Translations under genes and position numbers: made by a program
NCBI GenBank assembly: GCA_026387265.1
Contig: JAPLLZ010000054.1
Span: 1-51,669 of the forward strand
Source of the DNA: Candidatus Omnitrophota bacterium
GTDB taxonomy: Bacteria > Omnitrophota > Gorgyraeia > Gygaellales > Profunditerraquicolaceae
Reading direction: 5' to 3'
DNA length: 51,669 nucleotides
In this document: positions 3,001 through 41,775 of the stretch, in pieces
How the letters are laid out: each line of letters begins with the position of its first letter
How positions within the stretch are numbered: the stretch's first letter is position 1
The notes under the pieces: generated by a model
Seen by the model: the letters and a program-made list of their open reading frames with translations, nothing else
The model's database searches: none
Told to the model about the DNA's origin: nothing

Positions 3001-6000
3001 TTCAATTTTTAAATTACCAATAGTCCCAGTCTTCTCCCAAGTTACATCAAAATTCGCACCGACCGCTAAAGTATTATAGCCATTGGGATCCGTAAGCAGT
3101 ATCGAGCCCTTAATATAGTTGTCCGCGGTAGTCTCTCCGAATACTTGCGCGTTACTCTTGTCCGAAACTTTAACTTTAGCAGTAGACGTAATCGTATCCG
3201 GAACCGTCCAGGCGTAAGTCTTAGTTCCGGCAGGCAAAGCACCCGCCTGATCAATAATAGAATGCCATAATGTTCCATCAAAATAATCAATCACATAACC
3301 CGGGATATTACCGTTAAAAGTCCACTCCAGAGTAAAAGGTTTACCGACGACTAACGTCTCGGCGTTCATCGGATGAACCATAAATATACTACCGATAATT
3401 GCGTTTTCCCCGGTAGAGATATCAATTACATCGTTGGCATTAGTTTTTTCATAAATACGCGCCTGAACCGTTGCGCTAGGATCATCAGGAATTGTCCAGT
3501 CAAATTCAGCCGTTGCCCCTGATGTTCCGGCATTAATATCTTCTGCACCAATCACATTCTTCCATTCGGTATGCCCGGAATCAGTAGAATATTCTATTTT
3601 ACATTTACCGAGCGTACCGGTAGGAATCCATTTAATTAGATAGTGATTGGTAATGGGCATATTCACATTGGCATTAGGCTGCACCAATTGTAAAACTCCC
3701 ATAATGGCAAATAACTGAGAATCGCTTTTTACAGTGCTATCGCCAACCTTAGATATCCGCACTACCGTATCACCATTAGGGCTATCTGGAATAGTCCAGC
3801 CATATTTTAAAGAAGTAGGATCCAAATTATCGGCAATCGCCGGGGTCTCCCAAGTACTTCCGGCATCTAATGAATATTCTATCTTTATCTTCTCAACCTT
3901 ACCTTTAGGGGCCAGCCACTCAATATCCGGGCTTGCTTCAACCCGCCATTTAGAATTCGCGTCGGGCTTAGTAATCTCCAGGACCGGTTTAATCTTAAAA
4001 TCATTAGTACTAACTCCATATACGGTAGGTTCAGTTGAATCGCTCACCCGGATACGGCAGGTATCAGAAGTAACTAAAACATATTGTCCTGTGGGAATAG
4101 GCCAAGTATAAGGATGCGAGTTAGCGGCGCGTCCGGCCAGAACTTCAATAGGATAACCGCCTGTTCCGCTGGCCGTATCCAGATAAATATCAACGTTGGC
4201 GATGGTGCCGGTAAAACTCCAGTCGATATTATTAGATATGCCGTTTACCGTCCAGGTTTCGGGACTGCCGGGATTTTTCCCCGGAGCAACCAAAGTAACT
4301 GTGCCATGAACCGAGAAATCCGCAATTGATGCATCATTAACATATGTTGCATCAGAAACCTGCACAATCTTTACCCTATATTTATTACTGGTAGTATTAG
4401 GAACCGGCCAAGAATAGTGACAGATATGGCTGCCGTCTTCATTATTATTATAAGACTTAGTGGTAATTAAATTAGGATAACCGTCCAGGCCGCTGTTGGT
4501 ATCATAATATAAACTAATATTGCCAAGGGTACCGGTATATTTCCATTGGACATCAATAGGATCGCCGCCCACATGATAAGGAGCGCTATTATTAGGTGAG
4601 CCGCCCGGCTCAGGCGCCAAATCCAGAGAACCTTTGATCTGGAAGGCTTCTGATTCATCATTAACATCAGTATCGGTTTCCGCTTCAACCTTAATCTTAT
4701 TATCCACGTTAAGATCTACAGCATCTGGAACAGTCCAATTATAGTTAGGCAGCGAAGAATCTACACCGGTAGCAAAAGCCGCTCCGTAAGTTACGCCGTC
4801 AGGAGCAAAATAAAAAGCCAACGTGCCGATATCGCCGGTTTTAGACCAGGTGATCAGATGGCCTGAACCTACAATTAAAGCCGTGGCATTTTGATTGGAA
4901 TTATTAGGGCTGGTAATCGCCACCGTCCCCTTAACCTCAAAAGTATTTTCGGAAGTAATATTGATATCATTGGGGAAAGCATTGCTTTCCACGCGGATAC
5001 GCAATTTATCGCTAATCGGACAGGCTACCGGATCCCACAAATACCCATCAGCATTCAAAGTATTGGTAATAATCGTCCCAGTCGATCCGCCGTCGATGCT
5101 GTATTTTATATTTACCGTAGGCACATTACCTTGAGTAGTCCAGGTAATATTACGCTGCTCTCCTAAACGCCAAACCTGGCCGCCATTAGGCACCAAGTTA
5201 ATCAGGCGAGAACGTATGGTCAAAGGCTGCGCAGAAACAGAATTAATCGCTGAATCCGAGCTACTCACTACTTTGATTTTTACCTGGGTATTTTTACCAT
5301 TATCTCCGGCTTTAAAAGGATTACCATTGACTGGTAAAGTCCAAGTATAGGTACCATTACCTGTACCTGCTGGAATAGTATTGGTATTATCAATGACATT
5401 AATAAAAAGATCGTTGCCATTATCTTTAGAATAAAATAAATTTACTGTTCCTAATTGCCCGGTAACATTCCAATTTATCAGCTCTTCGGTTCCGCATAAC
5501 CAAGTTAGCGCCGAATCTCCAGAGTTAATCGAAGGACGCGTAAGTGTAACTGTCCCGCGGATAGTAAAATCATTTTCGCTTACTGAGAAAACTTCAGTAG
5601 CTTTTCCTGTTTGATAAACTTTAACGCGCGCTTCTTGTCCAACAATCCCGGCCACATCCGGTATCGTCCACTCATACGCCCCGAGGCTGGCATTTACGCC
5701 GTTAACGATAAAACCTTGATAGCCGTCAACACCACTATTGCCATCCCAGCGTAATTCCACCGTACCAAAGGTAGTCGGATTAGCAGTCCAGGTAATATTT
5801 AAAGGATCCCCGACAAATTTACTAATCCCGGTGGCTGTCGGATAAGTTAATTTAAGATAAGGAATTACTTTAAAAACCGAGGATGCACCGGCGGTTCCGG
5901 TGGTCAAATCCTCATCGCCGTCCAAAGCAACTTTAATTTTAACCGTGTCACTTCTGTGTGCAGGTAAAACCGTCCATTCGTAAGTTCTGGGAGTAGCAAT

Positions 6001-9000
6001 ATTTACTACGCCTTCGGTTAAAAGCACCGGCCAGGAAGTTCCTCCATCTAAGGAAAGGCGGATATCCGCGGTTCCGGTTATAGTACCAAAAGTAGTCCAG
6101 GTGATAACTTTGGTATTACCTTCCCCGGCATCAGTAACCCTTAAGATCTCATTAAGATGCGGCTCACCAACCGTAATGGTTCCTTTAATACTAAACGGGA
6201 CATCAGAATCATCATAAATATTCTCATTATCTTTATTGCAAACGCGGATTAAAACATTATTAGCGCCCAGATCATTAGGCACCGTCCAATTGAATGTCTG
6301 CATTACCTCCTGGGTACCGGCAGCAAGATTATTTTCCGGACGGGCATTTGCACAATAATTCCAAGAACCTGCCCCGACTTTATATTTAATCACCACATAA
6401 TCCATCGCGCCATGTATGGTCCATTTAATCGGTTTAACTTCATTATATCTCCAGATCTCTCCTCCAACAGGCTCATTCACAGTGATAGAAGCCTTCAAAT
6501 GGAAATCTGCGCTTACACCGTAAACCGTAGGATCATTTGCTTGCACGACTTTAATTTTAGAGGTGGGACTTGAACCGGTGACCGAAAGAGGAATATTCCA
6601 AATCCATGATCCACCCGCCGCATCAGTACCGGCAGCAACACTGCTGGCAATCGGCAATTCCCCATAAGTAAAACCAGCGTTACTGGAATAAAATATATTT
6701 ACTGTACCGTCGCTTGTGCCCCCTCCTAATAAACCCTTCTTAGACCAGGAAATCGTTTTAGTGTCTCCAGATAACCAAATCTCATCAGTAGTAGGAGAAA
6801 CATTATAAATATTGCCTTTTAAAGTAAAATTACTGGTGGGGCTTTCCACCAACCCGGCATCTCCGTAATTAAGAATAATTTTTAATTTATTCTGCGTGCC
6901 AATTAAATTCTCGCCGCCTAAACTTGATGGAATACCTGCCCAGCTCCAGGTGTTTCCGCTAGAACCGTCGTTGCCGGGAACAGCCACAGCCGTTAAGGTC
7001 TGGTTAAAATTGGTTCCGTCAGTAGACAACTTAATCGTGGCATTTGCCGGAGTGAGCCCGTTTAAGTTTCCATTCGTGGCCCAGGAAATATCATGCGTTT
7101 CTCCAATTAACCAGGTATTCGGAGGCTGGACAATAGTAAACTTTCCCCGGATGGAAAAATTAGCGTCTGAAACATCATAAAATCTGGTCGGCGTACCCGG
7201 ATCTTTATCAGAATCAATAACCCGCACCCTTAGCTGATTACCCACCAGATTACCGGAAGTGCTATAACTAGCCGGAACCGTCCATTCCCAACGCCCTTCA
7301 TTTTCTACGCTGGAGTTATTATTCACATCCAGCCCGGTAATTAAGGCCAAGGGAAGCCAGCTTGAGCCAGCGTTTGTCGAAAGTTCAATCCTTACTTTAT
7401 GTGCACCGTTAGTTCCCGTACCCAGCATACTCATCATATCGGCATACTTCCAGACAATATCGTGATTTTCACTTACCGCCCAACTTTCACCGCCGTTGGG
7501 GGAGATCACGGTAATCGGCGTCAACTCCGTGAGCGCCCAATTAAGCGTTACGTTACCAGTAGTTGTAGTATTAACGCGGGATATAGTAAAAGAATTCACC
7601 GTATCGGTTTCGCGAGCGGTATCTTCAAGTTGCCACTTGCCTAAAGTAGCATTGTAGCCAAATTTATTGACCGTCCCCAAGTAAGCACTCGCCACCCATA
7701 TTTTATCTAGGTCATTATCATATGCTATACCATACGGATACGAATCAGCAACTAATGAATCGATAACTTCCCCACTTTCAGGGTCAATTACGTCGACGAC
7801 ATTGGAGCCTTCGCACACCACCAACATCTTATTACGCGTACTATCCCAGGCCATCTGCCTGGGCATAAGATCAGTAGGTAAAGCATCAGTAGTAGAATTG
7901 GTAGTGACTGTAGCACGATTATCCGTCATAAATGCTCTGCGCACATAGTTACCGGTAGAGGAATTGACAATCGATGAGACTGCCCAGAGAGTATCCTGAG
8001 TCATACTGCCAACACCTTTAGTCGGCGCATAGAAAATCATAGCATAGTATTGATTTGTAGAACCAAAATCCGGGTTTAATGAACGATTACCATCCGAACA
8101 ACGAAACCTATATATATTGTCATCCAGCTCGGTGACCACCCACATGTAATTTGTGGCATCACTTGGCGTAGGATCATAACATATCCCGGTAGCGCGTCCT
8201 TGCGACCCGTTATAGTTAGTCACCGTATAAGGACTAGCATACATCATCTTGGAGGTAACTGGATAAGGAGTGGCCCCTGTATAATAGTTAGCAGTCCAGG
8301 CACAGTTTGTACTCGGATCCCAGGAAATATCGACGGGATTTTGCCCGACACTGTAGGTGCGCTCAAACGCCCCGGTTGAGGCATTTAGGCGCGTAACGGA
8401 ATTAGCAGAGTAATTGGCAATCCATATTGAACCGCCGCCATTAGTTACGGCAATCGGGTTGGTGCCGGTAGCGTAACTGCCGATTTTTGCTCCGGTGGCC
8501 GCGTTATATTTGGTAACGGTATTGGCCGCATAGTTGGTAACCCATACCGCCTTAGGATTAGTTGATGAATCATAACAAACTCCTTTTACGCTTAACTTTG
8601 TAAAACTCGGAGCAAAGCGTACCTCGTCATCATAGGTAGCAGTAGCTGTATCTGTCGGGCCTGATGTATTTATTATCGGGAACATGCGCATGGTATCAAT
8701 TACCGGGTTCAGTGTTGGATCTGCTGGACCAACTGAACCAGTGGCTACAGCTGTATCGTATACCGAACGAACATTAGTACCCTGATCCGTCATTTCCACC
8801 ACAAACCAATCTATAACAATATTAGAGCTTGCTACAGTTGCGGCGCGATCAAATTGTACTTGCGAAGCATTCAATATCTTACCCCGCACATTATCATATG
8901 CCTCTACACCGACAACATACCTATTTGATCTATAAGTATAGATTAAAAATGCATGGTCTAGATTAGTAATATCAGGGTCAGCGTGGCCGGGATTTATATT

Positions 9001-22583: not shown

Positions 22584-22892
22584 TTAATAACCAACCCCTT
22601 TAACGATAATCGCATTAGTAAAAGTTGATTTTTCTCTTAAGACGGCAAGCGTTTTATATTCCGAAGAACTAAGCCACTTCTTTATATATCTGGCGGCAGG
22701 AAATTCAATTATTACTATTCTTCCAGGCTTCCAGTTGCCAAAAACCGGAATAACCTGGCTGCCTCTGGCCAAATACTTTCCTTTGTATTTTTCTACAATC
22801 GCAGGGACCTGCCGAACATATTGCCCATAAGCACATTTACTTTTTTTATTACGCTTAACTTTAATTTCAACTATAAAATATACCGGCATCAC
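22584..22892 (-). CDS. DUF1330-family protein
   Basis: Y..YV.QV...VEKYKGKYLARG ... W.PGRIVIIEFP...WL.S.EY..L...RE pattern. Confidence 0.85.
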   Translation of the reverse strand: MMPVYFIVEIKVKRNKKSKCAYGQYVRQVPAIVEKYKGKYLARGSQVIPVFGNWKPGRIVIIEFPAARYIKKWLSSSEYKTLAVLREKSTFTNAIIVKGVGY

Positions 22893-26713: not shown

Positions 26714-28024
26714 TTATTTAGCTTTCGTAAATTCTAAAACACTTTTCTTCTTGTTTGAAAAACCCTTACAAACTTTTTGAGATACCTTCAAGGCCTCATT
26801 GTTGCTTTTAGTTTTCTTATAGTAAGAACCTAAGAGAGCATAAGCGGCTATTTCTTTCGGGTTTAATTTTATTGCCTTATCGGCAGCCGCAATTGCTTTT
26901 TTATACCTTCCAAGATTTGCAAAGGCTATGCTTAATTTTAGATAAATAGAAACCTTATCTTGCGCGAACCTTAAACCGGACTTATATATCTTTATAGCTT
27001 TTTTGTTTTCCCTAATTTTCTCGGAATTTTTCAAAAAAGTTGAGTTAATTACAACTGCGTTTTCTTTAAGCTTATCGCAATAATTACATTTATTGCATTC
27101 GCTGTTACATTTAGTTATTCTTTCAAAAAAATTATTTTTCTTAAGCACATCGTAATTAATAAAATCAAAATAAATCAGTCCCGGGCAATCTAAAATTTCT
27201 AATAAATCACCATTAAAATCCTGATGAATATAGGCCTTCAGGCAAGTTTCAATCTTAGAGGTAGGAAAGAATCTGGTAGATAACTTATAATAATCCGCAA
27301 TCTGAGCATAATACGGCAAGGCTTCCGGCGGTATAAAAGGAACACTAAAAACTTTTGCGGGATATTTCAAATATATTTTGATACAGAATCTATCGTAAAA
27401 AATATCATCGATTAATTTATTCGGGCTTTGAGTATTATGTGACAAAAAATTATAATGCATATTTCTGAATGGGCAATTTCTCAGGCACCCCTCATTAAGC
27501 ATTATTTTTATTTTCAAACCGGTTTTATCCTTAATTTTCTTAATTAAAGAGGTGTCGCGATTTATATCCCTATCGACCGTTAAAACATCCACACCAAGAT
27601 CCTTAAGATATAAAGCATGTTCCACTGTTTTTACGTAACAATTTACAGATGACTCTACTTCCATTCCTTTAATTTGTTCTTTAATCGCACAAATATAAAC
27701 AGGATTTGAAACTACCACGCTTTTTAGCCCTATTTTTTTTAATTTTTGAATATAACTAATAATCTTTGAAAAGAAATCACTTTCTAGCCCATCTTTTCCT
27801 TCACATGTCGCATTTAAGAGTAGCTGGGATTTTATATTCAATAAGTTGCATTTTTTAATTATTTTGGGGATTTCATTCAAGTAGCTACTTTTCTGAGAAC
27901 TATGCCTTCCTGAACCTACGTATTGGCGGGGTATTGGAAAATAAAAAGCTTCAATATTATCTTTATAGGCATCTAAAAGATCCAGCAAGTTTATATCTTG
28001 ATTATATCCAATAGAAAATTTCAT
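26714..28024 (-). CDS. U32-family (peptidase-like, Fe-S) protein with C-terminal Cys cluster and TPR repeats
   Basis: LLLNATC, SSVNC, VDRDINRD, NEGCLRNCP, CNSECNKCNYC, then a TPR (IYLKLSIAFANLGRYKKAIAAADKAIKLNP). Confidence 0.8.
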   Translation of the reverse strand: MKFSIGYNQDINLLDLLDAYKDNIEAFYFPIPRQYVGSGRHSSQKSSYLNEIPKIIKKCNLLNIKSQLLLNATCEGKDGLESDFFSKIISYIQKLKKIGLKSVVVSNPVYICAIKEQIKGMEVESSVNCYVKTVEHALYLKDLGVDVLTVDRDINRDTSLIKKIKDKTGLKIKIMLNEGCLRNCPFRNMHYNFLSHNTQSPNKLIDDIFYDRFCIKIYLKYPAKVFSVPFIPPEALPYYAQIADYYKLSTRFFPTSKIETCLKAYIHQDFNGDLLEILDCPGLIYFDFINYDVLKKNNFFERITKCNSECNKCNYCDKLKENAVVINSTFLKNSEKIRENKKAIKIYKSGLRFAQDKVSIYLKLSIAFANLGRYKKAIAAADKAIKLNPKEIAAYALLGSYYKKTKSNNEALKVSQKVCKGFSNKKKSVLEFTKAK

Positions 28025-28027
28025 TTT

Positions 28028-29191
28028 TTATTTTCTGGCTGCTGCCTTATAATTAAACCGCTTTGAAACAAGCCATTCAAAACCCAGTGCGCCAGGTTTA
28101 GTTACTATTATGGCTTCTGTCTTGCCGAGTTGTATATTTTTATAGGTATCTCTGTCAACCGTAAAATGTTCTGTATTATGGCCAGGCCTCCAGGAACCAA
28201 CATCAACATGATAGGTTGTGGTATTTTTAGAAACAGTCGAAAATTGTCTTACAACTGCCACAGTATGGCAGACCGGTTCATTTTTGTCACCTACGCCATT
28301 CACTAATAGAAGCGTGTTATTTGTAAAAATAATCGAGGCAAGCAAAGAGATAACCGCTATCCAAATAAAATCTTTATGCGCGGCTGCCCGCCCCCGAATC
28401 CCTAAACCTGCCGCAATAAGATATAAAACAGCCGCAGGAACCGAAAATAACAGGCCCAATCTAAAAACCTTAGATTCATCCAGCGGCGGATAAGCAAACG
28501 TCCAGGAATAAGCCACCAAAGCGGCCACCAATACCAGAGAGGAAAATAAATAAAACATTACCGTTTTAATTCTTAAACGCGGTATACCCAAAAATTCCTG
28601 ATTGGCAAAATAATCCGGGAGGTTTTCCGATAGCTTAACAAGACTGGCAATTGTTTCCGTAATCAAAGAGTCACTAAGGTGGGTTTTATTAAACCCCACC
28701 CACGAAACCACTATACTTCTTCCGTTATGCTTAACCTGACTGAATCCGGTGCTGTAAAGATGCTTTATAATATTTCTCTTTTGCTCCGATTGAAAATAGA
28801 CACGCGCAAAATCCACAGTATCGGATAAAATATAATAACTGTTATCAAAATCGACATCACCAGTTTGCAATTCAGATGAAAACCCTATTTTCTTGGCAAG
28901 CTTGTCAAATTTACCTTCAGGCACCACCATAAATTCCCCGTGAGATAAACAGGGCACACTGACTGTAAGAATGGGCGGTGAATTCTTGGTGCTCGGAGTA
29001 TACTGAAACCAATATTTAATACCATTTTTGTTTATTACATATCTACCCAGGGAATTACATTTAGCACCTAAACTCAAAGCTGTTTCTTTCGCAATATTTT
29101 TATTATTTCCTTGGCGGGAAAACTTACAGCTTTTTACAATAGCAAATACCAATAGGAAAATTACCCAAGCAATAGCTATAAATGTCCCCAT
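28028..29191 (-). CDS. Hypothetical multi-pass membrane protein
   Basis: ORF 387 aa: N-terminal TM, soluble domain, three TMs and a C-terminal beta-domain. Confidence 0.65.
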   Translation of the reverse strand: MGTFIAIAWVIFLLVFAIVKSCKFSRQGNNKNIAKETALSLGAKCNSLGRYVINKNGIKYWFQYTPSTKNSPPILTVSVPCLSHGEFMVVPEGKFDKLAKKIGFSSELQTGDVDFDNSYYILSDTVDFARVYFQSEQKRNIIKHLYSTGFSQVKHNGRSIVVSWVGFNKTHLSDSLITETIASLVKLSENLPDYFANQEFLGIPRLRIKTVMFYLFSSLVLVAALVAYSWTFAYPPLDESKVFRLGLLFSVPAAVLYLIAAGLGIRGRAAAHKDFIWIAVISLLASIIFTNNTLLLVNGVGDKNEPVCHTVAVVRQFSTVSKNTTTYHVDVGSWRPGHNTEHFTVDRDTYKNIQLGKTEAIIVTKPGALGFEWLVSKRFNYKAAARK

Positions 29192-36897: not shown

Positions 36898-37497
36898 TTA
36901 AATTGTGCGGCGAGATTCTAGCGACTTTGAAAGAGTAGTGGCATCGGCATATTCCAGATTTGAACCTACCGGTATTCCTAAACCAATACGGCTTAAAGAC
37001 ACACCCAGAGGTTTAAGCAATTTAGTTAAATACATAGCAGTAGTTTCACCTTCTGTATCCGCGTCGGTAGCAATAATTATTTCTTTAAGGCTTCCCTGCT
37101 TTATTCTCTGGATTAAACCGTCAATTTTTAAATCGCTGGGGCCTCTCCCCTCTAATGGCGATATAGAACCCAAAAGCACATGGTAAGAACCATGAAAATT
37201 ACCTGCTTTTTCAATTGCTGTAACATCGCTAGGTTTTTCTACCACGCAGACGATATCTTTCTGCCGGCTTAAATCCTGACAAATCTTGCAGATATCTTCT
37301 TCACTTAAGTTATTACAAATCTGGCATGAGCGCACACTTTCTTTTACTTTATTCAAAGATTCAGCCAAAGTTTTAATCTCATCATTAGTCGCCCCTAAAA
37401 CATGCGCAACAATGCGTTCGGCGCTGCGACGGCCAACTCCGGGAAGTTTAATTAAACAGTCGATTAATTTTTCAATGGAAGCCGTGTAATTGGCCAT
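36898..37497 (-). CDS. recR: Recombination protein RecR
   Basis: KLPGVGRRSAERI, zinc finger CQIC...CKIC, CVVEKPSDV, YHVLLG and EIIIATDADTEGETTA. Confidence 0.97.
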   Translation of the reverse strand: MANYTASIEKLIDCLIKLPGVGRRSAERIVAHVLGATNDEIKTLAESLNKVKESVRSCQICNNLSEEDICKICQDLSRQKDIVCVVEKPSDVTAIEKAGNFHGSYHVLLGSISPLEGRGPSDLKIDGLIQRIKQGSLKEIIIATDADTEGETTAMYLTKLLKPLGVSLSRIGLGIPVGSNLEYADATTLSKSLESRRTI

Positions 37498-39170
37498 TAG
37501 TTCTCTTTAACCACCCTTCCTCCAAACATTTCCAAAGCGGATTTAACAAATGGGTTACTGCGCGCATCCACGTCACGTTTCATCTCTGCATTTAAAACAA
37601 AATTTATCCTAAGATCAGCATTACATAATTCTGAAGCTGCTTTTTCCACCAACGCCTTGTTTTCTTTTTTATCCAAAGACTCTTTATGCAAAGAGCAACT
37701 TTTAGGAAAAGCAACGGTAACCAGGTCGCCTTGCACTTTCATCGGCTCACCTTCACTTAGATAAGTAGATACAGACATCTTAATTGTAGATAAATTATTT
37801 ATAATGCTATCCCAAACTTCCTTTACTTTTTCTAAGGGAACTGAAATAACCGGCGCAAGGCTATCTTTTACTATTGGAACCTGTTGCGGCTGCTCTTTTT
37901 TCGTAGAGGACAAATCGTTAGTTTCTGAATTAATCTGATTTAATGAATTTGACTGGTTCTTTTGGCTTTGCTTATTGGAAAGCAAACCACCGTTCTCTAA
38001 CTTGTGGCTTTGCTTATTAGGGGGCAAACCATCGCCCGCTGACTTGTGGGTTTGGCTATCGGTAGCCAAACCACGGCCTTCTGGCCGATTATGCGCTAAC
38101 CTGACTAAACTTATCTCCAGCGGTATGCGCTGAGAATCCAGGCGCTTAGTCATCTCCTGTGTAGCAATTAAAATATTAAAAGCCGTAAAAATCTCATCTA
38201 AACTCATTAGCTGGCTTTGTTTAAATAAACGATCACATATCTCCTGCGGCAAATCTACCAATTTATTATCTGCCTGGGAAACTTTCGCAACCATAAGATT
38301 GCGGAAGTGTTCAATAAGATTAATCAGAAACACGCCCGGATCTTTACCGTCATCAATTATCTCATTAAAAAGTTTCAAAGCCTGCGCGGGATCTTTTTGA
38401 ATTATTTTATCCGTGAGCGCGAACAAAACATCCTGTTCTACCATACCCAGAACAGAAATAGCATCTTTTAAAGATATCCTGTCCTTAGAAAAAGACGCCA
38501 GTTGGTCTAAAACTGATTCGGCATCCCGCAGCGATCCATCACTGCTACGGGCAACGGCTGCCAGCACCTCTTTATCCACAATAATCTTTTCCTGATGGAT
38601 AATTTTTTCCAGTTGCGCGATAATTTCGATAACTGTAATCCTACGGAAATCCATCCGCTGACAGCGGGATATAATCGTCGGTATAACTTTTTGCGGATGA
38701 GTAGTAGCAAAAATAAACTTTACAAATTCCGGCGGTTCCTCAAGAGTTTTAAGTAAAGCATTAAACCCGTCAGGAGTTATCTGGTGAACTTCATCAATAA
38801 TATAAACCTTATACTTGCCATGCGTAGGAGAAAACTTCACATTCTCGCGCAAAGCCCTGATTTCATCGATCCCGCGATTAGAAGCTCCGTCAATTTCAAT
38901 TACATCCAGAGAACGCCCCTGATTAATCTCAAGACAGGATGGGCATTTTTGGCAAGGCTTAAGCGTTGGGCCTTCCTTACAATTAAGCGCTTTGGCTAAT
39001 ATGCGGGCGGTCGAAGTTTTGCCTACTCCCCTTGGCCCGGCAAAAAGATAGGCATGGGCAAGACGGTCCTTAGAAATAGCATTTTTTAAAGTACCGACAA
39101 TATGATCCTGCCCGATAATACTTTCGAAATCCTGAGGACGCCATTTTAAAGCAAAAACAGTATAAGACAT
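37497..39170 (-). CDS. dnaX: DNA polymerase III subunit gamma/tau
   Basis: ALKWRPQDF, HAYLFAGPRGVGKTS, ALNC...PCQKC..C, EIDGASNRG, IIDEVH and TIISRCQ. Confidence 0.97.
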   Translation of the reverse strand: MSYTVFALKWRPQDFESIIGQDHIVGTLKNAISKDRLAHAYLFAGPRGVGKTSTARILAKALNCKEGPTLKPCQKCPSCLEINQGRSLDVIEIDGASNRGIDEIRALRENVKFSPTHGKYKVYIIDEVHQITPDGFNALLKTLEEPPEFVKFIFATTHPQKVIPTIISRCQRMDFRRITVIEIIAQLEKIIHQEKIIVDKEVLAAVARSSDGSLRDAESVLDQLASFSKDRISLKDAISVLGMVEQDVLFALTDKIIQKDPAQALKLFNEIIDDGKDPGVFLINLIEHFRNLMVAKVSQADNKLVDLPQEICDRLFKQSQLMSLDEIFTAFNILIATQEMTKRLDSQRIPLEISLVRLAHNRPEGRGLATDSQTHKSAGDGLPPNKQSHKLENGGLLSNKQSQKNQSNSLNQINSETNDLSSTKKEQPQQVPIVKDSLAPVISVPLEKVKEVWDSIINNLSTIKMSVSTYLSEGEPMKVQGDLVTVAFPKSCSLHKESLDKKENKALVEKAASELCNADLRINFVLNAEMKRDVDARSNPFVKSALEMFGGRVVKEN

Positions 39171-39202: not shown

Positions 39203-39445
39203 TCATTTAAACAACATCTCTTTCAGCCTTCTGCGGCCAGTTGTTGATTTATAGAATTTCTCTCTTTGCCGAGCTTCGCTTAACGTTGTAAAGAATTCTG
39301 TATGAATTACTTTGTAAGGACGATACGAACTCGATGATTTAACCCTGCCTGAGTTATGTTCTTTTAGCCGCTCATCAACATCATCAGAAACACCTGTATA
39401 CGTTCTCGTCTTTGCATCATTAAGAAGGACATAAACATAAAACAT
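39203..39445 (-). CDS. Small GIY-YIG endonuclease
   Basis: FYVYVL...TYTGVSDDVDERLKEHNSG...A..REKFYKS..GRR. Start re-assigned to ATG 39445 (AAAGGA SD). Confidence 0.9.
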   Translation of the reverse strand: MFYVYVLLNDAKTRTYTGVSDDVDERLKEHNSGRVKSSSSYRPYKVIHTEFFTTLSEARQREKFYKSTTGRRRLKEMLFK

Positions 39446-39469
39446 TTTTTCCTTTAGTTCACTACGGAT

Positions 39470-39545
39470 CCGCCATTTTGCAAAAGCAAAATGGCGAGAT
39501 CTCGCCAAAATTTACTAGGTTTTACATGAAGCAAATTTTGGCGGG
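39470..39545. repeat. Composite REP-like double hairpin upstream of GIY-YIG
   Basis: CCGCCATTTTG-CAAAAG-CAAAATGGCG-AGATCT-CGCCAAAATTT...AAATTTTGGCGG; same architecture as 41703-41744. Confidence 0.7.
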
Positions 39546-39732
39546 TAGTCGTGGACGAAAGGCGAACCCTACAACCCATTGAAATAGAGCTACTTATAAA
39601 AATTCATCGAAAACGTAGCATGGGTTGGCTCATCGCCCTAGACGAACCCATTTTCAATAAACCTACAAAACCCAAAGAACCAACGAACTCAGCTCCCTAC
39701 TATGACTACGTTATTTAGCGACTGTTTGCTCA

Positions 39733-40452
39733 TTAGCTCTTTTCCCAAAAAAGTTCTCCGGAAGCGCTCACGATAAAAAGACGCATATATTGCTTCTTCC
39801 AAGATTCATTCTCCGACAAAAATGCGTCAAGTTCATTCTGCCCTTTGCCTCGCGGATACTTTAAATAATCATCAAAATACACCAACAACGCAGTCATATC
39901 TGGACGTTGCGTAACTTTTGTTTTGCGATCTATCGCTTTTTGAATCAGATCTATTTTTTCTGCGATCGATTTGCTACTCTCCCCTACTTCATCTTCCACT
40001 GAAATTTGCAGTCCGGTTTTCTTAGTGCCTATTTTAGTAACTTTGCCAGTCGTAGAAACAGAACCTTGTTCTAAAAAATACAACATTCTTAGATGCTCTT
40101 CTTCGTCTCTGTCTGCCTGTGTTATTTCTATGTGCTTAGGTATAGACTCGTCACTACTTTCAAGCCGGACATCAAAACTCTTTGTTCTCTGTTTTTTCTG
40201 ATTGCGTGGAATATAAGTTATCCTTACACCTTGCCATTCTTGTTGCTTGCGCTGGAGAAGGTGATACAAAGGGAATAATTCCTCATAAAAATTCTTTGCT
40301 ATCCCTTTATGTAAAATATTTTGATTTTTCAGTTCTTCTCTATAGTCTTTTGTGATAGCTAGTTTTTGTTCAAACCATTTAATAAACTCTTCTGGAGTTC
40401 TTGCTTGAGAAAGCTCAGTTTCAGTTAGATAGTCTTCGAGCATTAAGTTCAT
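39733..40452 (-). CDS. Hypothetical protein, possible PD-(D/E)xK nuclease fold
   Basis: ORF 239 aa; SFDVRL...KHIEITQA resembles a D...ExT nuclease core; preceded by an AAAGGGA SD. Confidence 0.55.
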   Translation of the reverse strand: MNLMLEDYLTETELSQARTPEEFIKWFEQKLAITKDYREELKNQNILHKGIAKNFYEELFPLYHLLQRKQQEWQGVRITYIPRNQKKQRTKSFDVRLESSDESIPKHIEITQADRDEEEHLRMLYFLEQGSVSTTGKVTKIGTKKTGLQISVEDEVGESSKSIAEKIDLIQKAIDRKTKVTQRPDMTALLVYFDDYLKYPRGKGQNELDAFLSENESWKKQYMRLFIVSASGELFWEKS

Positions 40453-40463
40453 TCATTCCCTTT

Positions 40464-40916
40464 TTATACCATTACTTCTGGCTTCCACTCTATAATCGGC
40501 TTGAAAGCATTCCATCTTGCTTCGCCGGTTAATTCGGGCCGATAATCTTTATTGGTTTCGATTTCAAATGCTCCGGCAGAGCAAATCATAACCCACAATT
40601 TCGGCATAAAAGGTGAAAAAATCTTAGCCCAACTCTTATAATGCTTATCTGACCAAAGGATTAACACTTCTTGACCTTGCTTAACCTTCTCAAAAGCCAT
40701 GCGTAAATGTTTGTAGTCCTCTTTATGGAAAATAAGACCTGTAACAGGATCAGCAAATTTCGAACATATAACTGTTAAAACAGCATAGGGATAATATTTA
40801 CGGCCATTAATTTCAAATTCTTGCGTTTTATCAAAACGAAGAAATTTGGTTACCTTACAAAGAACTCCGTCAATCTCAGCCCACTGCTTATTGTTAATAA
40901 AATGCTTCTGGGCCAT
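40464..40916 (-). CDS. Hypothetical protein
   Basis: ORF 150 aa; its AGGGAG SD overlaps the cassette boundary. Confidence 0.65.
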   Translation of the reverse strand: MAQKHFINNKQWAEIDGVLCKVTKFLRFDKTQEFEINGRKYYPYAVLTVICSKFADPVTGLIFHKEDYKHLRMAFEKVKQGQEVLILWSDKHYKSWAKIFSPFMPKLWVMICSAGAFEIETNKDYRPELTGEARWNAFKPIIEWKPEVMV

Positions 40917-40966
40917 TTTTACTCCCTACAGGGTTCGCGTCCACGACAACTCAGGACCTCAAAAAC

Positions 40967-41058
40967 TGGCGGAGAGGCTGGGATTCGAACCCAGGGAACC
41001 AGTTGCCCAGGTCAACTCATTAGCAGTGAGTTGCTTTCGACCACTCAGCCACCTCTCC
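40967..41058 (-). tRNA. tRNA-Ser(GCT)
   Basis: GGAGAGGTGGCTGAGTGG..., anticodon loop CTGCTAA, long variable arm, GGGTTCGAATCCC, encoded CCA. Confidence 0.97.
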
Positions 41059-41093: not shown

Positions 41094-41573
41094 TTAGTTA
41101 CAGGATCCCGCCTTATGATTAACACGCTTGCGGGAAAAGAAATCTTTTAGTAAAGAACTGCACTCTGCCTGAAGGATTCCTTTAGTTACTTTAATACGAT
41201 GATTTAACTTTTTGTGGTTTATGATATTTACTACAGAACCACAAGCGCCGGTTTTAGGATCACTGGCGCCAAAATATAAGGTTTTTATACGCGCTAAAAC
41301 CAACGCTCCGGCACACATGCTGCACGGCTCAATTGTAACATAGAGGCTAGCCTGGTTCAACCACTTTGTCCCTAGATAATTTGCGGCACTGGTAATAGCA
41401 ATTATTTCGGCATGGGCGGTAGGATCTTTTAAGCGCTCAACCTGATTATGGCCCCTGGCAATAATCAGGTTATTGTGAACAATAACTGCTCCAACAGGTA
41501 CTTCATCCTCCTGGAAAGCTCTATAGGCTTCTTTTAAAGCCTCCTGCATATAATACTGCTGGACTTTTAGCAT
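41094..41573 (-). CDS. tadA: tRNA-specific adenosine deaminase
   Basis: EVPVGAVIV, DPTAHAEI (HxE), TIEPCSMCAGAL (PCxxC) and DPKTGACGS. Confidence 0.97.
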   Translation of the reverse strand: MLKVQQYYMQEALKEAYRAFQEDEVPVGAVIVHNNLIIARGHNQVERLKDPTAHAEIIAITSAANYLGTKWLNQASLYVTIEPCSMCAGALVLARIKTLYFGASDPKTGACGSVVNIINHKKLNHRIKVTKGILQAECSSLLKDFFSRKRVNHKAGSCN

Positions 41574-41602
41574 TCTCTGTTTACTATAGAAAACATTTAA
41601 TA

Positions 41603-41676
41603 TGCGCCCAGCTGGGGTCGAACCAGCAACCTTCAGTTCCGTAGACTGACGCTCTATCCAGTTGAGCTATGGGCGC
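41603..41676 (-). tRNA. tRNA-Arg(ACG), CCA not encoded
   Basis: GCGCCCA/TGGGCGC acceptor stem, anticodon arm TCAGT-CTACGGA-ACTGA, GGTTCGACCCC T-arm. Confidence 0.95.
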
Positions 41677-41775
41677 AAGATTTAAAAGATTCTTGCCAGT
41701 TGCCCGCCAAAAAATATTTCTATTTTTTTGGCGAGGTCTCGCCACACCTAGTATAGCGGGAAACTATGGGCGCAA
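41667..41775. mobile_element. 85-bp REP/MITE-like insert flanked by a 12-bp duplication of the tRNA-Arg 5' end
   Basis: CTATGGGCGCAA at 41667-41678 and 41764-41775; the internal hairpin is CCCGCCAAAAAA...TTTTTTTGGCGAGGTCTCGCCA. Confidence 0.6.

Follow-up and report, generated by a model that had tools for sequence, protein, structure and literature searches.

A probable family of gene cassettes behind tRNA-Ser genes in Omnitrophota, with a GIY-YIG nuclease as candidate enzyme

Introduction

To our knowledge, integrons are the only well-understood system in which single-gene cassettes are stockpiled at a fixed chromosomal platform. The core of the integron attC site (PMC2727003, PMC5027507) is an R''/R' pair of the form RYYYAAC ... 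GTTRRRY, with crossover at G|TT. A second described system that is relevant here is Ssn, single-domain GIY-YIG nucleases of approximately 94 amino acids (aa) that cut single-stranded DNA (ssDNA) beside the hairpin repeats flanking their own genes; cleavage persists when the stem is given as two separate strands (PMC11893778). In the present work we analyzed a block of two genes located between tRNA-Ser(GCT) and dnaX in a 51,669-nucleotide (nt) stretch of DNA, contig JAPLLZ010000054.1 of assembly GCA_026387265.1, which we refer to in full as the window. The contig (C55 of the genome labelled G000) comes from a metagenome-assembled genome (MAG) of Omnitrophota of 1.56 Mb and 39% G+C. Judging by sequence comparison across the phylum, the two-gene block is very probably one cassette of a phylum-wide mobile family that resides behind tRNA-Ser genes.

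A first-pass annotation of the window had drawn attention to this block as an integron-like cassette inserted at the apex of a near-perfect palindrome. The statement that we favor is a different one and has four parts: a mobile cassette family, insertion by way of an ssDNA hairpin, a small GIY-YIG nuclease as the enzyme, and expression by read-through from an upstream tRNA operon. We would give this statement, taken as a whole, a probability of roughly 45%, and the parts differ in strength as set out below.

Results

Shared arms and varied cargo

The two genes of the window have a close counterpart in another order of the phylum. In the Omnitrophota MAG GCA_040753015.1 (locus L013; L-numbers denote loci and G-numbers genomes), a homologue of gene 1 with 89% aa identity is followed by the same second gene and sits behind a different tRNA gene, tRNA-Ser(TGA). 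Nucleotide homology between the two loci extends from TGTGGACGCGAACCCT in the 5' arm to GGGTTGTAGGGTTCGC(C/T)TT in the 3' arm, the arms being the two halves of an inverted repeat that brackets the cargo, and the spacer between tRNA and arm differs. Because the homology spans the block from arm to arm, both arms must have moved with the cargo. Two other features of L013 were recorded: at 5330-6560 the homologous cassette has had the outer half of its 3' arm replaced, with an IS3-family transposase after it, and at 7745-7768, 3.8 kb downstream, there is a 24-nt copy of the tRNA-Ser 3' end.

Further homologues of gene 1 were found behind the same 15-mer of the 5' arm, either alone or with other partner genes. 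In our survey sample of 401 Omnitrophota species genomes, exact copies of this 15-mer (GTGGACGCGAACCCT) are present in 15 genomes, once in each, versus 2 for the reversed control, and the 15-mer is always upstream of different cargo. All of these cases have the same framework, in which a tRNA 3' end or a tRNA-like ...ACCCGCCA is followed by a leader of ~55 nt and the 5' arm, then by the cargo, by a 3' module ending ...TTGTAGGGTTCGC-N5-GTC(C/T)AC-GACTACCCGCCA and, often, by the next cassette. For the family as a whole, CCA comes first, then either a leader (19-60 nt) or a GIY-YIG gene instead of it, and then GTGGACGCGAACCCT, cargo, a 3' module of ~190 nt and GACTACCCG. The 3' module holds the 3' arm in inverted form (AGGGTTCGC-N5-GTCCAC). 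The first-pass annotation had tied the fate of its proposal in part to the existence of alternative cargoes in related genomes; since such cargoes are abundant in this framework, that ground for discarding it falls away.

The 3' module provides a second handle on the family. We aligned 55 distinct copies of it; a BLAST search with its last 120 nt found matches in 58 of the 401 genomes, which belong to two classes of the phylum, and a stricter pattern for the 3' end recovered 89 metagenome stretches in which divergence is immediate past CCCGCCA. The module of the window matches a profile made from other cassettes with E=5e-46 (nhmmer). The other 17 genomes of the genus gave no match to the module, and the best matches (91-94% identical) are in other genera and families, a distribution that points to horizontal arrival of the cassette in the window lineage. 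There was no Rfam family for the module, Rfam having matched tRNAs alone, and RNAalifold applied to the 55 copies produced nothing convincing by way of a conserved fold on either strand. A scan of genome contigs with the pattern AGGGTTCGCN{0,6}GTCCAC was also tried and proved too unspecific, giving chance matches in unrelated phyla.

The cargo is diverse. In 42 arm-to-arm cassettes, with lengths of 271-3,012 nt, we found 33 distinct proteins that group into 29 cargo families. Among these are AccI and MjaI restriction enzymes with methylases, HNH nucleases, S-adenosylmethionine (SAM) methyltransferases, a class A beta-lactamase family protein, EamA, glyoxalase, FRG, TPR, HEAT, YbjQ, CNNM and MscS proteins, and Avd-like PF05635 proteins; no integrase, resolvase or transposase family is among the 29 that were listed. 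The class A beta-lactamase-family gene of L157 (G168:C1, ~1030450-1031950; PF13354, E=2e-45) is carried in a family cassette beside a DUF4440-like gene. Arrays contain up to five modules (L160) and are co-oriented, with all units on the strand of the tRNA gene. The family is apparently undescribed; full-text literature searches returned no description of a tRNA-Ser cassette system.

We also encountered a sister family with a different end module, located behind tRNA-Asp, whose 3' end is likewise CCGCCA. At L276:3621-5460 a related cassette follows a tRNA-Asp gene with the 3' end CCCCGCCA; it includes a homologue of gene 2 and ends ...GGTTCGAACAAAACTTAATACACACCGCCA.

Insertion site, boundaries and empty sites

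At the approximately 30 loci where the start of the array is on the contig, a same-strand tRNA-Ser gene (GCT, TGA, GGA or CGA) is immediately upstream, the single exception being an array that starts at a fragment resembling a tRNA 3' end, 50 nt after a tRNA-Leu gene. All insertions follow the ...CCG of a tRNA-Ser gene or of a cassette end, in a fixed orientation and with no duplication. CCA is encoded in 25 of the 28 tRNA-Ser genes that have cassettes, and the tRNA-Ser genes without cassette-like downstream sequence (7/7) read CTCTCCG|T..., with no CCA. In G000 about 10 of 43 tRNA genes encode a 3' CCA, and both of its CCA-bearing tRNA-Ser genes (GCT and CGA) carry cassette DNA. Mobile-looking DNA adjoins the CCA-encoding genes for Ser-GCT, Ser-CGA, His, Ala-CGC, Asn and Asp in this genome.

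The distance between tRNA-Ser(GCT) and dnaX is 1,799 nt in the window and, within the genus, varies from 24 nt (G003) to 2,335 nt. It is 204 nt in G335, the closest relative sampled (98% aa identity in dnaX), 272-302 nt in several genomes with a small resident open reading frame (ORF), and 423, 832, 1,076 and ~1,750-1,780 nt in others; the interval is empty or differently filled in every same-genus relative sampled. In the 13 same-genus intervals that were read, the sequence after G73 is T/A-rich and includes no CCA, palindrome or arm, and a bare interval without the palindrome is found in G003, G335, G023, G010, G004 and G166.

We set the limits of the cassette by comparing occupied with empty tRNA-Ser sites and by using the right junctions of other members. 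In G427 and G012 an element end ...GGTTGCAGACGGGTCCG (GGGTCCG|) is followed by TAAAATTTTCCGACAAGGAG (TAAAATTTTCC), and the flank past this end equals the flank after CTCTCCG| in the empty sites of G024 and G023. Several terminal cassettes, moreover, end CCCG|TTTT or CCCG|AAAA. On the basis of these ends the unit therefore runs from CCA to ...CCG, with crossover directly after G73. In the window the real junctions are thus G73|CCA at 40970/40969 and CCCG|CCA at 39542/39541, both of which are outside the arms, and the interval between tRNA-Ser(GCT) and dnaX is filled by the cassette, a 77-nt hairpin mini-cassette and a GIY-YIG gene (Table 1).

The same hotspot also holds inserts of another type. 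Behind tRNA-Ser(GCT) in L260 (G020:C10) and L263 (G021:C83) there are inserts of ~100 and ~135 nt with 12-13-nt repeats of the tRNA 3' end (CCAGCCTCTCCG), which by the look of these repeats are a different, classical att-type small element.

A GIY-YIG nuclease linked to the family

In approximately 90 loci we found 17 single-domain GIY-YIG ORFs. The one in the window is of this kind, as PF01541 covers nearly all of its 81-aa product, and it has a hairpin mini-cassette upstream. Nine of the 17 come after CCA and a hairpin mini-cassette and end directly at the 5' arm (hairpin GTCCACAATTA-N3-TAATTGTGGAC); the 'full' unit is therefore CCA, GIY-YIG gene, 5' arm, cargo, 3' module and CCG. Close homologues of the window protein (at least 55% identity) are present in 6 of 40 genomes with the module versus 0 of 40 without it (p=0.013); of these six, five are within ~1 kb of a module or array. 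The 16-mer TTGGCGAGATCTCGCC was tried as a proxy for the GIY-YIG leader and discarded, its overlap with module-bearing genomes being weak (5/13, p=0.027). Given that the gene adjoins the window cassette and is physically linked to the family elsewhere, the nuclease is our candidate enzyme, and we tentatively propose that it is the mobility enzyme of the family and would act in trans on the window cassette.

Paralogues of this gene are also found inserted in other tRNA genes, in their 5' part and with duplications of 17-22 nt, as if the nuclease family had a second mode of insertion on the 5' side. Inserts of this sort were seen at G000:C32:~69700-70155, at C66:~27950-28432 and at L013:3380-3920, in tRNA-His, tRNA-Ala and tRNA-Ser(TGA), and have a copy of the tRNA start (17-22 nt) upstream, then (C/T)CCGCCA.

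Arms and signals at the window locus

The inverted repeat is exact, as first described. Its left arm (39548-39569) is GTCGTGGAC-GAAAG-GCGAACCC and its right arm (40931-40947) is GGGTTCGCGTCCACGAC, which makes 9+8 bp with a 5-nt bulge around the two genes. The gapped arm pattern has exactly 2 matches in the window versus 0 in 100 shuffles, and with two mismatches permitted each arm is single-copy in the genome. Mismatches between arms in the family are biased, with 17 G.T versus 4 A.C on the sense strand; for the arm extensions (CTAATT/GTTGTC versus AATTA/GACTA), covariation followed no clear pattern.

The direct repeats CCCTACA, at 39567-39573 and 40924-40930 (1,357 bp apart), were also confirmed; their reading as a duplication was not. 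The left copy falls within TTGTAGGGTTCGC, a conserved stretch of the 3' module, and the right copy is made up of the end of the 5' arm and the cassette's own Shine-Dalgarno sequence. On the 5' side the equivalent sequence, TGTAGGG, is not kept in other members, which have AGAGGAG, AGGGGGAG or GGTAAGG instead. The flanks just outside the arms (GAGTT and TACCCGCC) are not repeats, and so there is no target-site duplication at that position.

Several other aspects of the first description stand. The Shine-Dalgarno sequence of gene 1 (GGGAG, 40922-40926; gene start at 40916) abuts the right arm, no sigma-70-like site was found on the minus strand between tRNA-Ser and gene 1, in agreement with a promoterless cassette, and the cassette end does imitate the segment of a tRNA from T-arm to 3' end. 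The claim that there is no recombinase holds inside the unit; just beyond it, ~100 nt past the left arm, the GIY-YIG nuclease gene begins.

Anatomy of the window cassette and its neighbors

Table 1. Features between dnaX and tRNA-Arg(ACG) in the window
Feature	Position	Strand	Remarks
tRNA-Arg(ACG)	41602-41677	-	
tadA	41094-41573	-	
tRNA-Ser(GCT)	40967-41058	-	ARAGORN; Rfam tRNA, 62.5 bits; G73 = 40970, encoded CCA = 40967-40969
Whole cassette, 1,428 nt	39542-40969	-	CCA, short leader, 5' arm, two genes, 3' module, end ...GACTACCCG
Short leader GTTTTTGAGGTCCTGAGTT	40948-40966	-	Compared with L144, L154 and L196
5' arm GTCGTGGACGCGAACCCT	40930-40947	-	Right arm of the first-pass annotation; directly upstream of Shine-Dalgarno
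Cargo gene 1, 150 aa	40464-40916	-	ORF; 16 homologues, all uncharacterized
Cargo gene 2, 239 aa	39733-40452	-	ORF; other partner genes elsewhere
Non-coding 3' module, ~190 nt	39542-39732	-	Holds 3' arm; tRNA-like end GACTACCCG
3' arm AGGGTTCGC-CTTTC-GTCCACGAC	39548-39570	-	Left arm of the first-pass annotation; 5-nt bulge differs among cassettes
Hairpin mini-cassette, 77 nt (CCA...GGCGGATCCG)	39465-39541	-	
Terminator-like palindrome TGGCGAGATCTCGCCA, then T-run TTTTGCTTTT	39492-39507	-	Scores as intrinsic terminator; inside mini-cassette
Single-domain GIY-YIG gene, 81 aa from ATG	39203-39448	-	Pfam PF01541, E=1e-15
dnaX	37497-39170	-	Conserved right-hand flank of insertion hotspot

The short leader of the window looks like a deleted form of a 55-nt 'type 2' leader ending ...CCTGAGTTGTC, as far as the alignment with other leaders goes. 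The products of genes 1 and 2 had no match in Pfam, PADLOC, NCBIfam or PHROG. AlphaFold2 models of the two reached predicted local distance difference test (pLDDT) values of 84.5 and 77.9, respectively, and a Foldseek comparison of both with the PDB returned nothing with E < 0.1; the XisH, RuvC and Argonaute-like rows obtained for gene 2 were weak and not significant. Homologues of gene 2 pair with other first genes elsewhere.

The mini-cassette that follows the window cassette is itself recurrent. The exact 16-mer of its terminator palindrome occurs in 13 of the 401 genomes versus 0 for the control, and the unit was found again after tRNA-Ser genes or cassette ends in L177, L195, L207, L224, L239 and L243. 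In G000 the same unit is present a second time as a solo mini-cassette of 63 nt (CCA AATTTCG...TGGCGAGATCTCGCC...GGCGGATCCG; G000:C11:2406-2468) right after tRNA-Ser(CGA). Hairpin units of ~60 nt with the form TTG(C/A)(A/T)ACCAATTCG...CGGTTCGATTGCAAACGGGTCCG were observed in L005 (G011:C2, ~22700-22800), L166 (805-870) and L269 (G017:C49:380-470), either behind tRNA-Ser or just upstream of dnaX; these appear to be gene-less mini-cassettes that share the ...CCG end.

Discussion

A working model

A plausible scenario for the movement of these cassettes is that they insert site-specifically at the ...CCG| of a tRNA gene or of the tRNA-mimicking end of the preceding cassette. The structure recognized at the target would be a stem plus 8-10 nt, formed by the T-arm and acceptor strand in the case of a tRNA gene and by the arm helix and GACTACCCG in the case of a cassette. 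The two arms would form, or be read as, a split hairpin, probably in sense-strand ssDNA, and the linked GIY-YIG nuclease would act on it in the manner of Ssn, serving 'autonomous' units in cis and those of the window type in trans. The cargo would be transcribed by read-through from the tRNA-Arg/tadA/tRNA-Ser unit, with termination predicted in the mini-cassette at TGGCGAGATCTCGCCA and its T-run (39492-39507). This model predicts ...GACTACCCG|CCAGTTTTTGAGG... as the junction of an excised circle and CTCTCCG|TAG... as the emptied site. In its most specific form, that of an Omnitrophota gene-capture platform in which tRNA-Ser (tRNA-Asp in the sister family) is dock and promoter and an ~80-aa GIY-YIG protein, guided by the two-arm hairpin or the T-arm of the tRNA gene, cuts and pastes ssDNA at ...CCG|CCA, we consider the model possible but doubtful.

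There are several observations that weigh against this model: (i) compensatory covariation between the arms was not found (partner shuffling, p=0.38 within the same cassette and p=1.0 across the junction), so that the arms need not form a helix and might instead be bound by protein; (ii) 34 of 40 module-bearing genomes have no close homologue of the GIY-YIG protein, and the nuclease may therefore be only a frequent, perhaps selfish, passenger; (iii) the copy of the GIY-YIG gene in the window is without the usual CCA start and downstream arm; (iv) the solved structures nearest to its product are the UPF0213 proteins 1ywl and 1zg2, and its comparison with Ssn is one of size, domain and gene layout; and (v) CCA comes after 12 of 15 module ends, including ends with no recognizable further unit, which leaves room both for a crossover exactly before or after CCA and for an origin of CCA at the RNA level.

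Alternative explanations

The alternative that survives best, although we think it unlikely, is that a tyrosine recombinase acts in trans. The cassettes would then be integrase-less satellites similar to cis-mobilizable elements (CIMEs), assembled through tandem accretion and served by the integrase of a helper phage or integrative and conjugative element (ICE) or by XerC/D, and the ~90-nt leader side and ~190-nt module side would constitute the two attP arms. Integrase action at tRNA 3' ends is the commonest known route to tRNA-linked islands, and the tRNA 3'-end target, the tRNA-mimicking cassette end and the tandem arrays are all consistent with it; the conserved flanks are also attP-sized, and their inverted repeats are possible arm-type binding sites. 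However, no PF00589 gene is adjacent to the arrays in 15 cassette-bearing genomes, 7 of which have two Xer-sized recombinases only, and the listed cargo families contribute no integrase either. Moreover, the identity between tRNA and cassette is limited to CCG(CCA), which is shorter than the usual overlap and core sites, and the arms are unlike dif.

We regard an RNA-mediated origin as quite improbable. In such 'retro-cassettes' CCA would be added to the tRNA-like end of an RNA, and the complementary DNA would template-switch onto tRNA-Ser-CCA or cassette RNAs, much as in the Mauriceville plasmid of Neurospora. This would account for two features of genomes in which most tRNA genes do not encode CCA, namely that CCA marks all internal junctions and that tRNA-Ser is followed by it only if a cassette comes next; the arm changes compatible with G.U pairing on the sense strand and the Avd-like PF05635 genes of some arrays could be taken in the same sense. 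Nevertheless, we saw no reverse transcriptase in or beside any array, terminal units end CCCG|T/A without CCA, and the right junction in G427 and G012 fits insertion at the DNA level after G73.

Even less probable, in our view, is a non-autonomous transposon with terminal inverted repeats (TIRs), that is, a mobile insertion cassette or cargo-carrying miniature inverted-repeat transposable element (MITE) dependent on a DDE transposase supplied from elsewhere. The cargo does lie between inverted repeats of 15-18 bp, and an IS3 copy adjoins the homologous cassette in L013. On the other hand, there is no target duplication outside the arms, conservation runs on past them as far as the junctions at CCA and CCG, insertion is strict in both target and orientation, and the 5-nt bulge makes the two ends unequal. 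The arms also occur once each in G000, and a cognate insertion sequence (IS) is therefore not present there.

The explanation of the first-pass annotation, that a pre-existing hairpin behind tRNA-Ser was split at its apex with duplication of CCCTACA, now has very little probability. Removal of the DNA between the repeats does leave a clean hairpin, and cassettes with a type 3 leader (L160, L163, L204 and L234) show a local GGCGAACCCTG...CAGGGTTCGCC hairpin immediately behind the tRNA; but the arms travel with the cargo, TGTAGGG is not conserved on the 5' side of other members, and the empty sites that this annotation proposed to look for were found (the six genomes listed above) and none has the palindrome. 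Finally, a long-range stem between the 5' and 3' ends of the mRNA of an old, non-mobile resident operon, serving for example in RNase III processing or stabilization, would suit arms that bracket the transcript exactly from Shine-Dalgarno sequence to 3' untranslated region and the wobble bias of the sense strand, but is scarcely credible for a framework that surrounds unrelated cargo and has so patchy a spread (0/17 same-genus genomes, yet 91-94% nucleotide identity in other families); such a stem may be a secondary role of the arms.

Significance

Returning to the cassette family with its candidate nuclease, the existence of another platform that differs in site, target and enzyme would mean that cassette stockpiling has had more than one origin. 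The way in which uncultured Omnitrophota with small genomes trade accessory genes, among them those for restriction-modification, transporters and the beta-lactamase-family protein, would be explained as well. If the GIY-YIG protein is the enzyme, then a function would be assigned to the very large UPF0213-like 'housekeeping' family, and a compact, hairpin-programmable way of inserting DNA would be open to study, with the end of a tRNA gene as its universal target sequence; this would be the first class of mobile element driven by a stand-alone GIY-YIG domain. Should the GIY-YIG mechanism hold, the system would be categorically new; otherwise it would be a variant of site-specific cassette arrays.

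Comparison with known systems

The cassette system works like an integron and fails the integron tests, as it has neither IntI nor an attC core. Like integrons, it arranges small cassettes, mostly promoterless and very diverse in accessory cargo, in co-oriented arrays; each cassette has an imperfect-palindrome site with unpaired bases, and there is one fixed platform where an upstream promoter drives expression. Unlike in integrons, there is no IntI or other integrase at the platform, which any tRNA-Ser gene provides with its 3' end. Cassette junctions read ...GACTACCCG|CCA(G)TTTTT... and the tRNA junction ...CTCTCCG|CCA; crossover is therefore at CCG|CCA rather than at G|TT within GTTRRRY, a motif missing from these boundaries, and the first-pass view of an integron-like system without attC is borne out in this respect. 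The halves of the palindrome, furthermore, are at opposite ends of the cassette, which has the conserved ~190-nt module in addition.

Nor does the system pass as a tRNA-integrase island or as a TIR transposon. It resembles tRNA-targeted islands and CIMEs in that insertion is at the tRNA 3' end, the distal end is tRNA-like and units without a recombinase are found in tandem. Its units, however, measure 0.06-3 kb, there is no integrase in cis or nearby, and the insertion point, after G73, is not within the body of the mature tRNA. A repeat of 3-6 nt is shared with the tRNA, as opposed to typically at least 15 nt in such islands; tRNA and cassette have in common CCG(CCA) and, beyond that, a loose GGGTTCG...CCGCCA resemblance only.

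With the IS200/IS605 family, which moves by single-strand 'peel and paste', and with its passenger or MITE derivatives, the palindrome-associated transposable elements (PATEs), it shares insertion 3' of a short motif without duplication, an element end that repeats the motif, hairpin-forming ends, a fixed orientation and small non-autonomous derivatives. The differences are that the hairpin is split between the ends instead of being subterminal at each, that the target is a tRNA end, and that the cassettes have no linked Y1 HUH transposase; the cargo families likewise include no HUH family, a statement that applies to the cassettes, as no genome-wide HUH search was made.

Two systems with GIY-YIG nucleases invite comparison. 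The Seg homing endonucleases of T-even phages are encoded by intergenic genes beside tRNA genes and spread with flanking DNA; they differ in having a DNA-binding domain, in relying on double-strand-break repair between homologous genomes and in forming no cassette arrays with defined ends. Ssn differs in being described as a modulator of transformation and not as a mobilizer of cassettes, with dispersed 28-nt hairpin repeats (NTS/SRM) that have no link to tRNA, but is similar in that it is a single-domain GIY-YIG protein of ~80-100 aa whose gene is flanked by hairpin repeats in an IS-like layout (PMC11893778).

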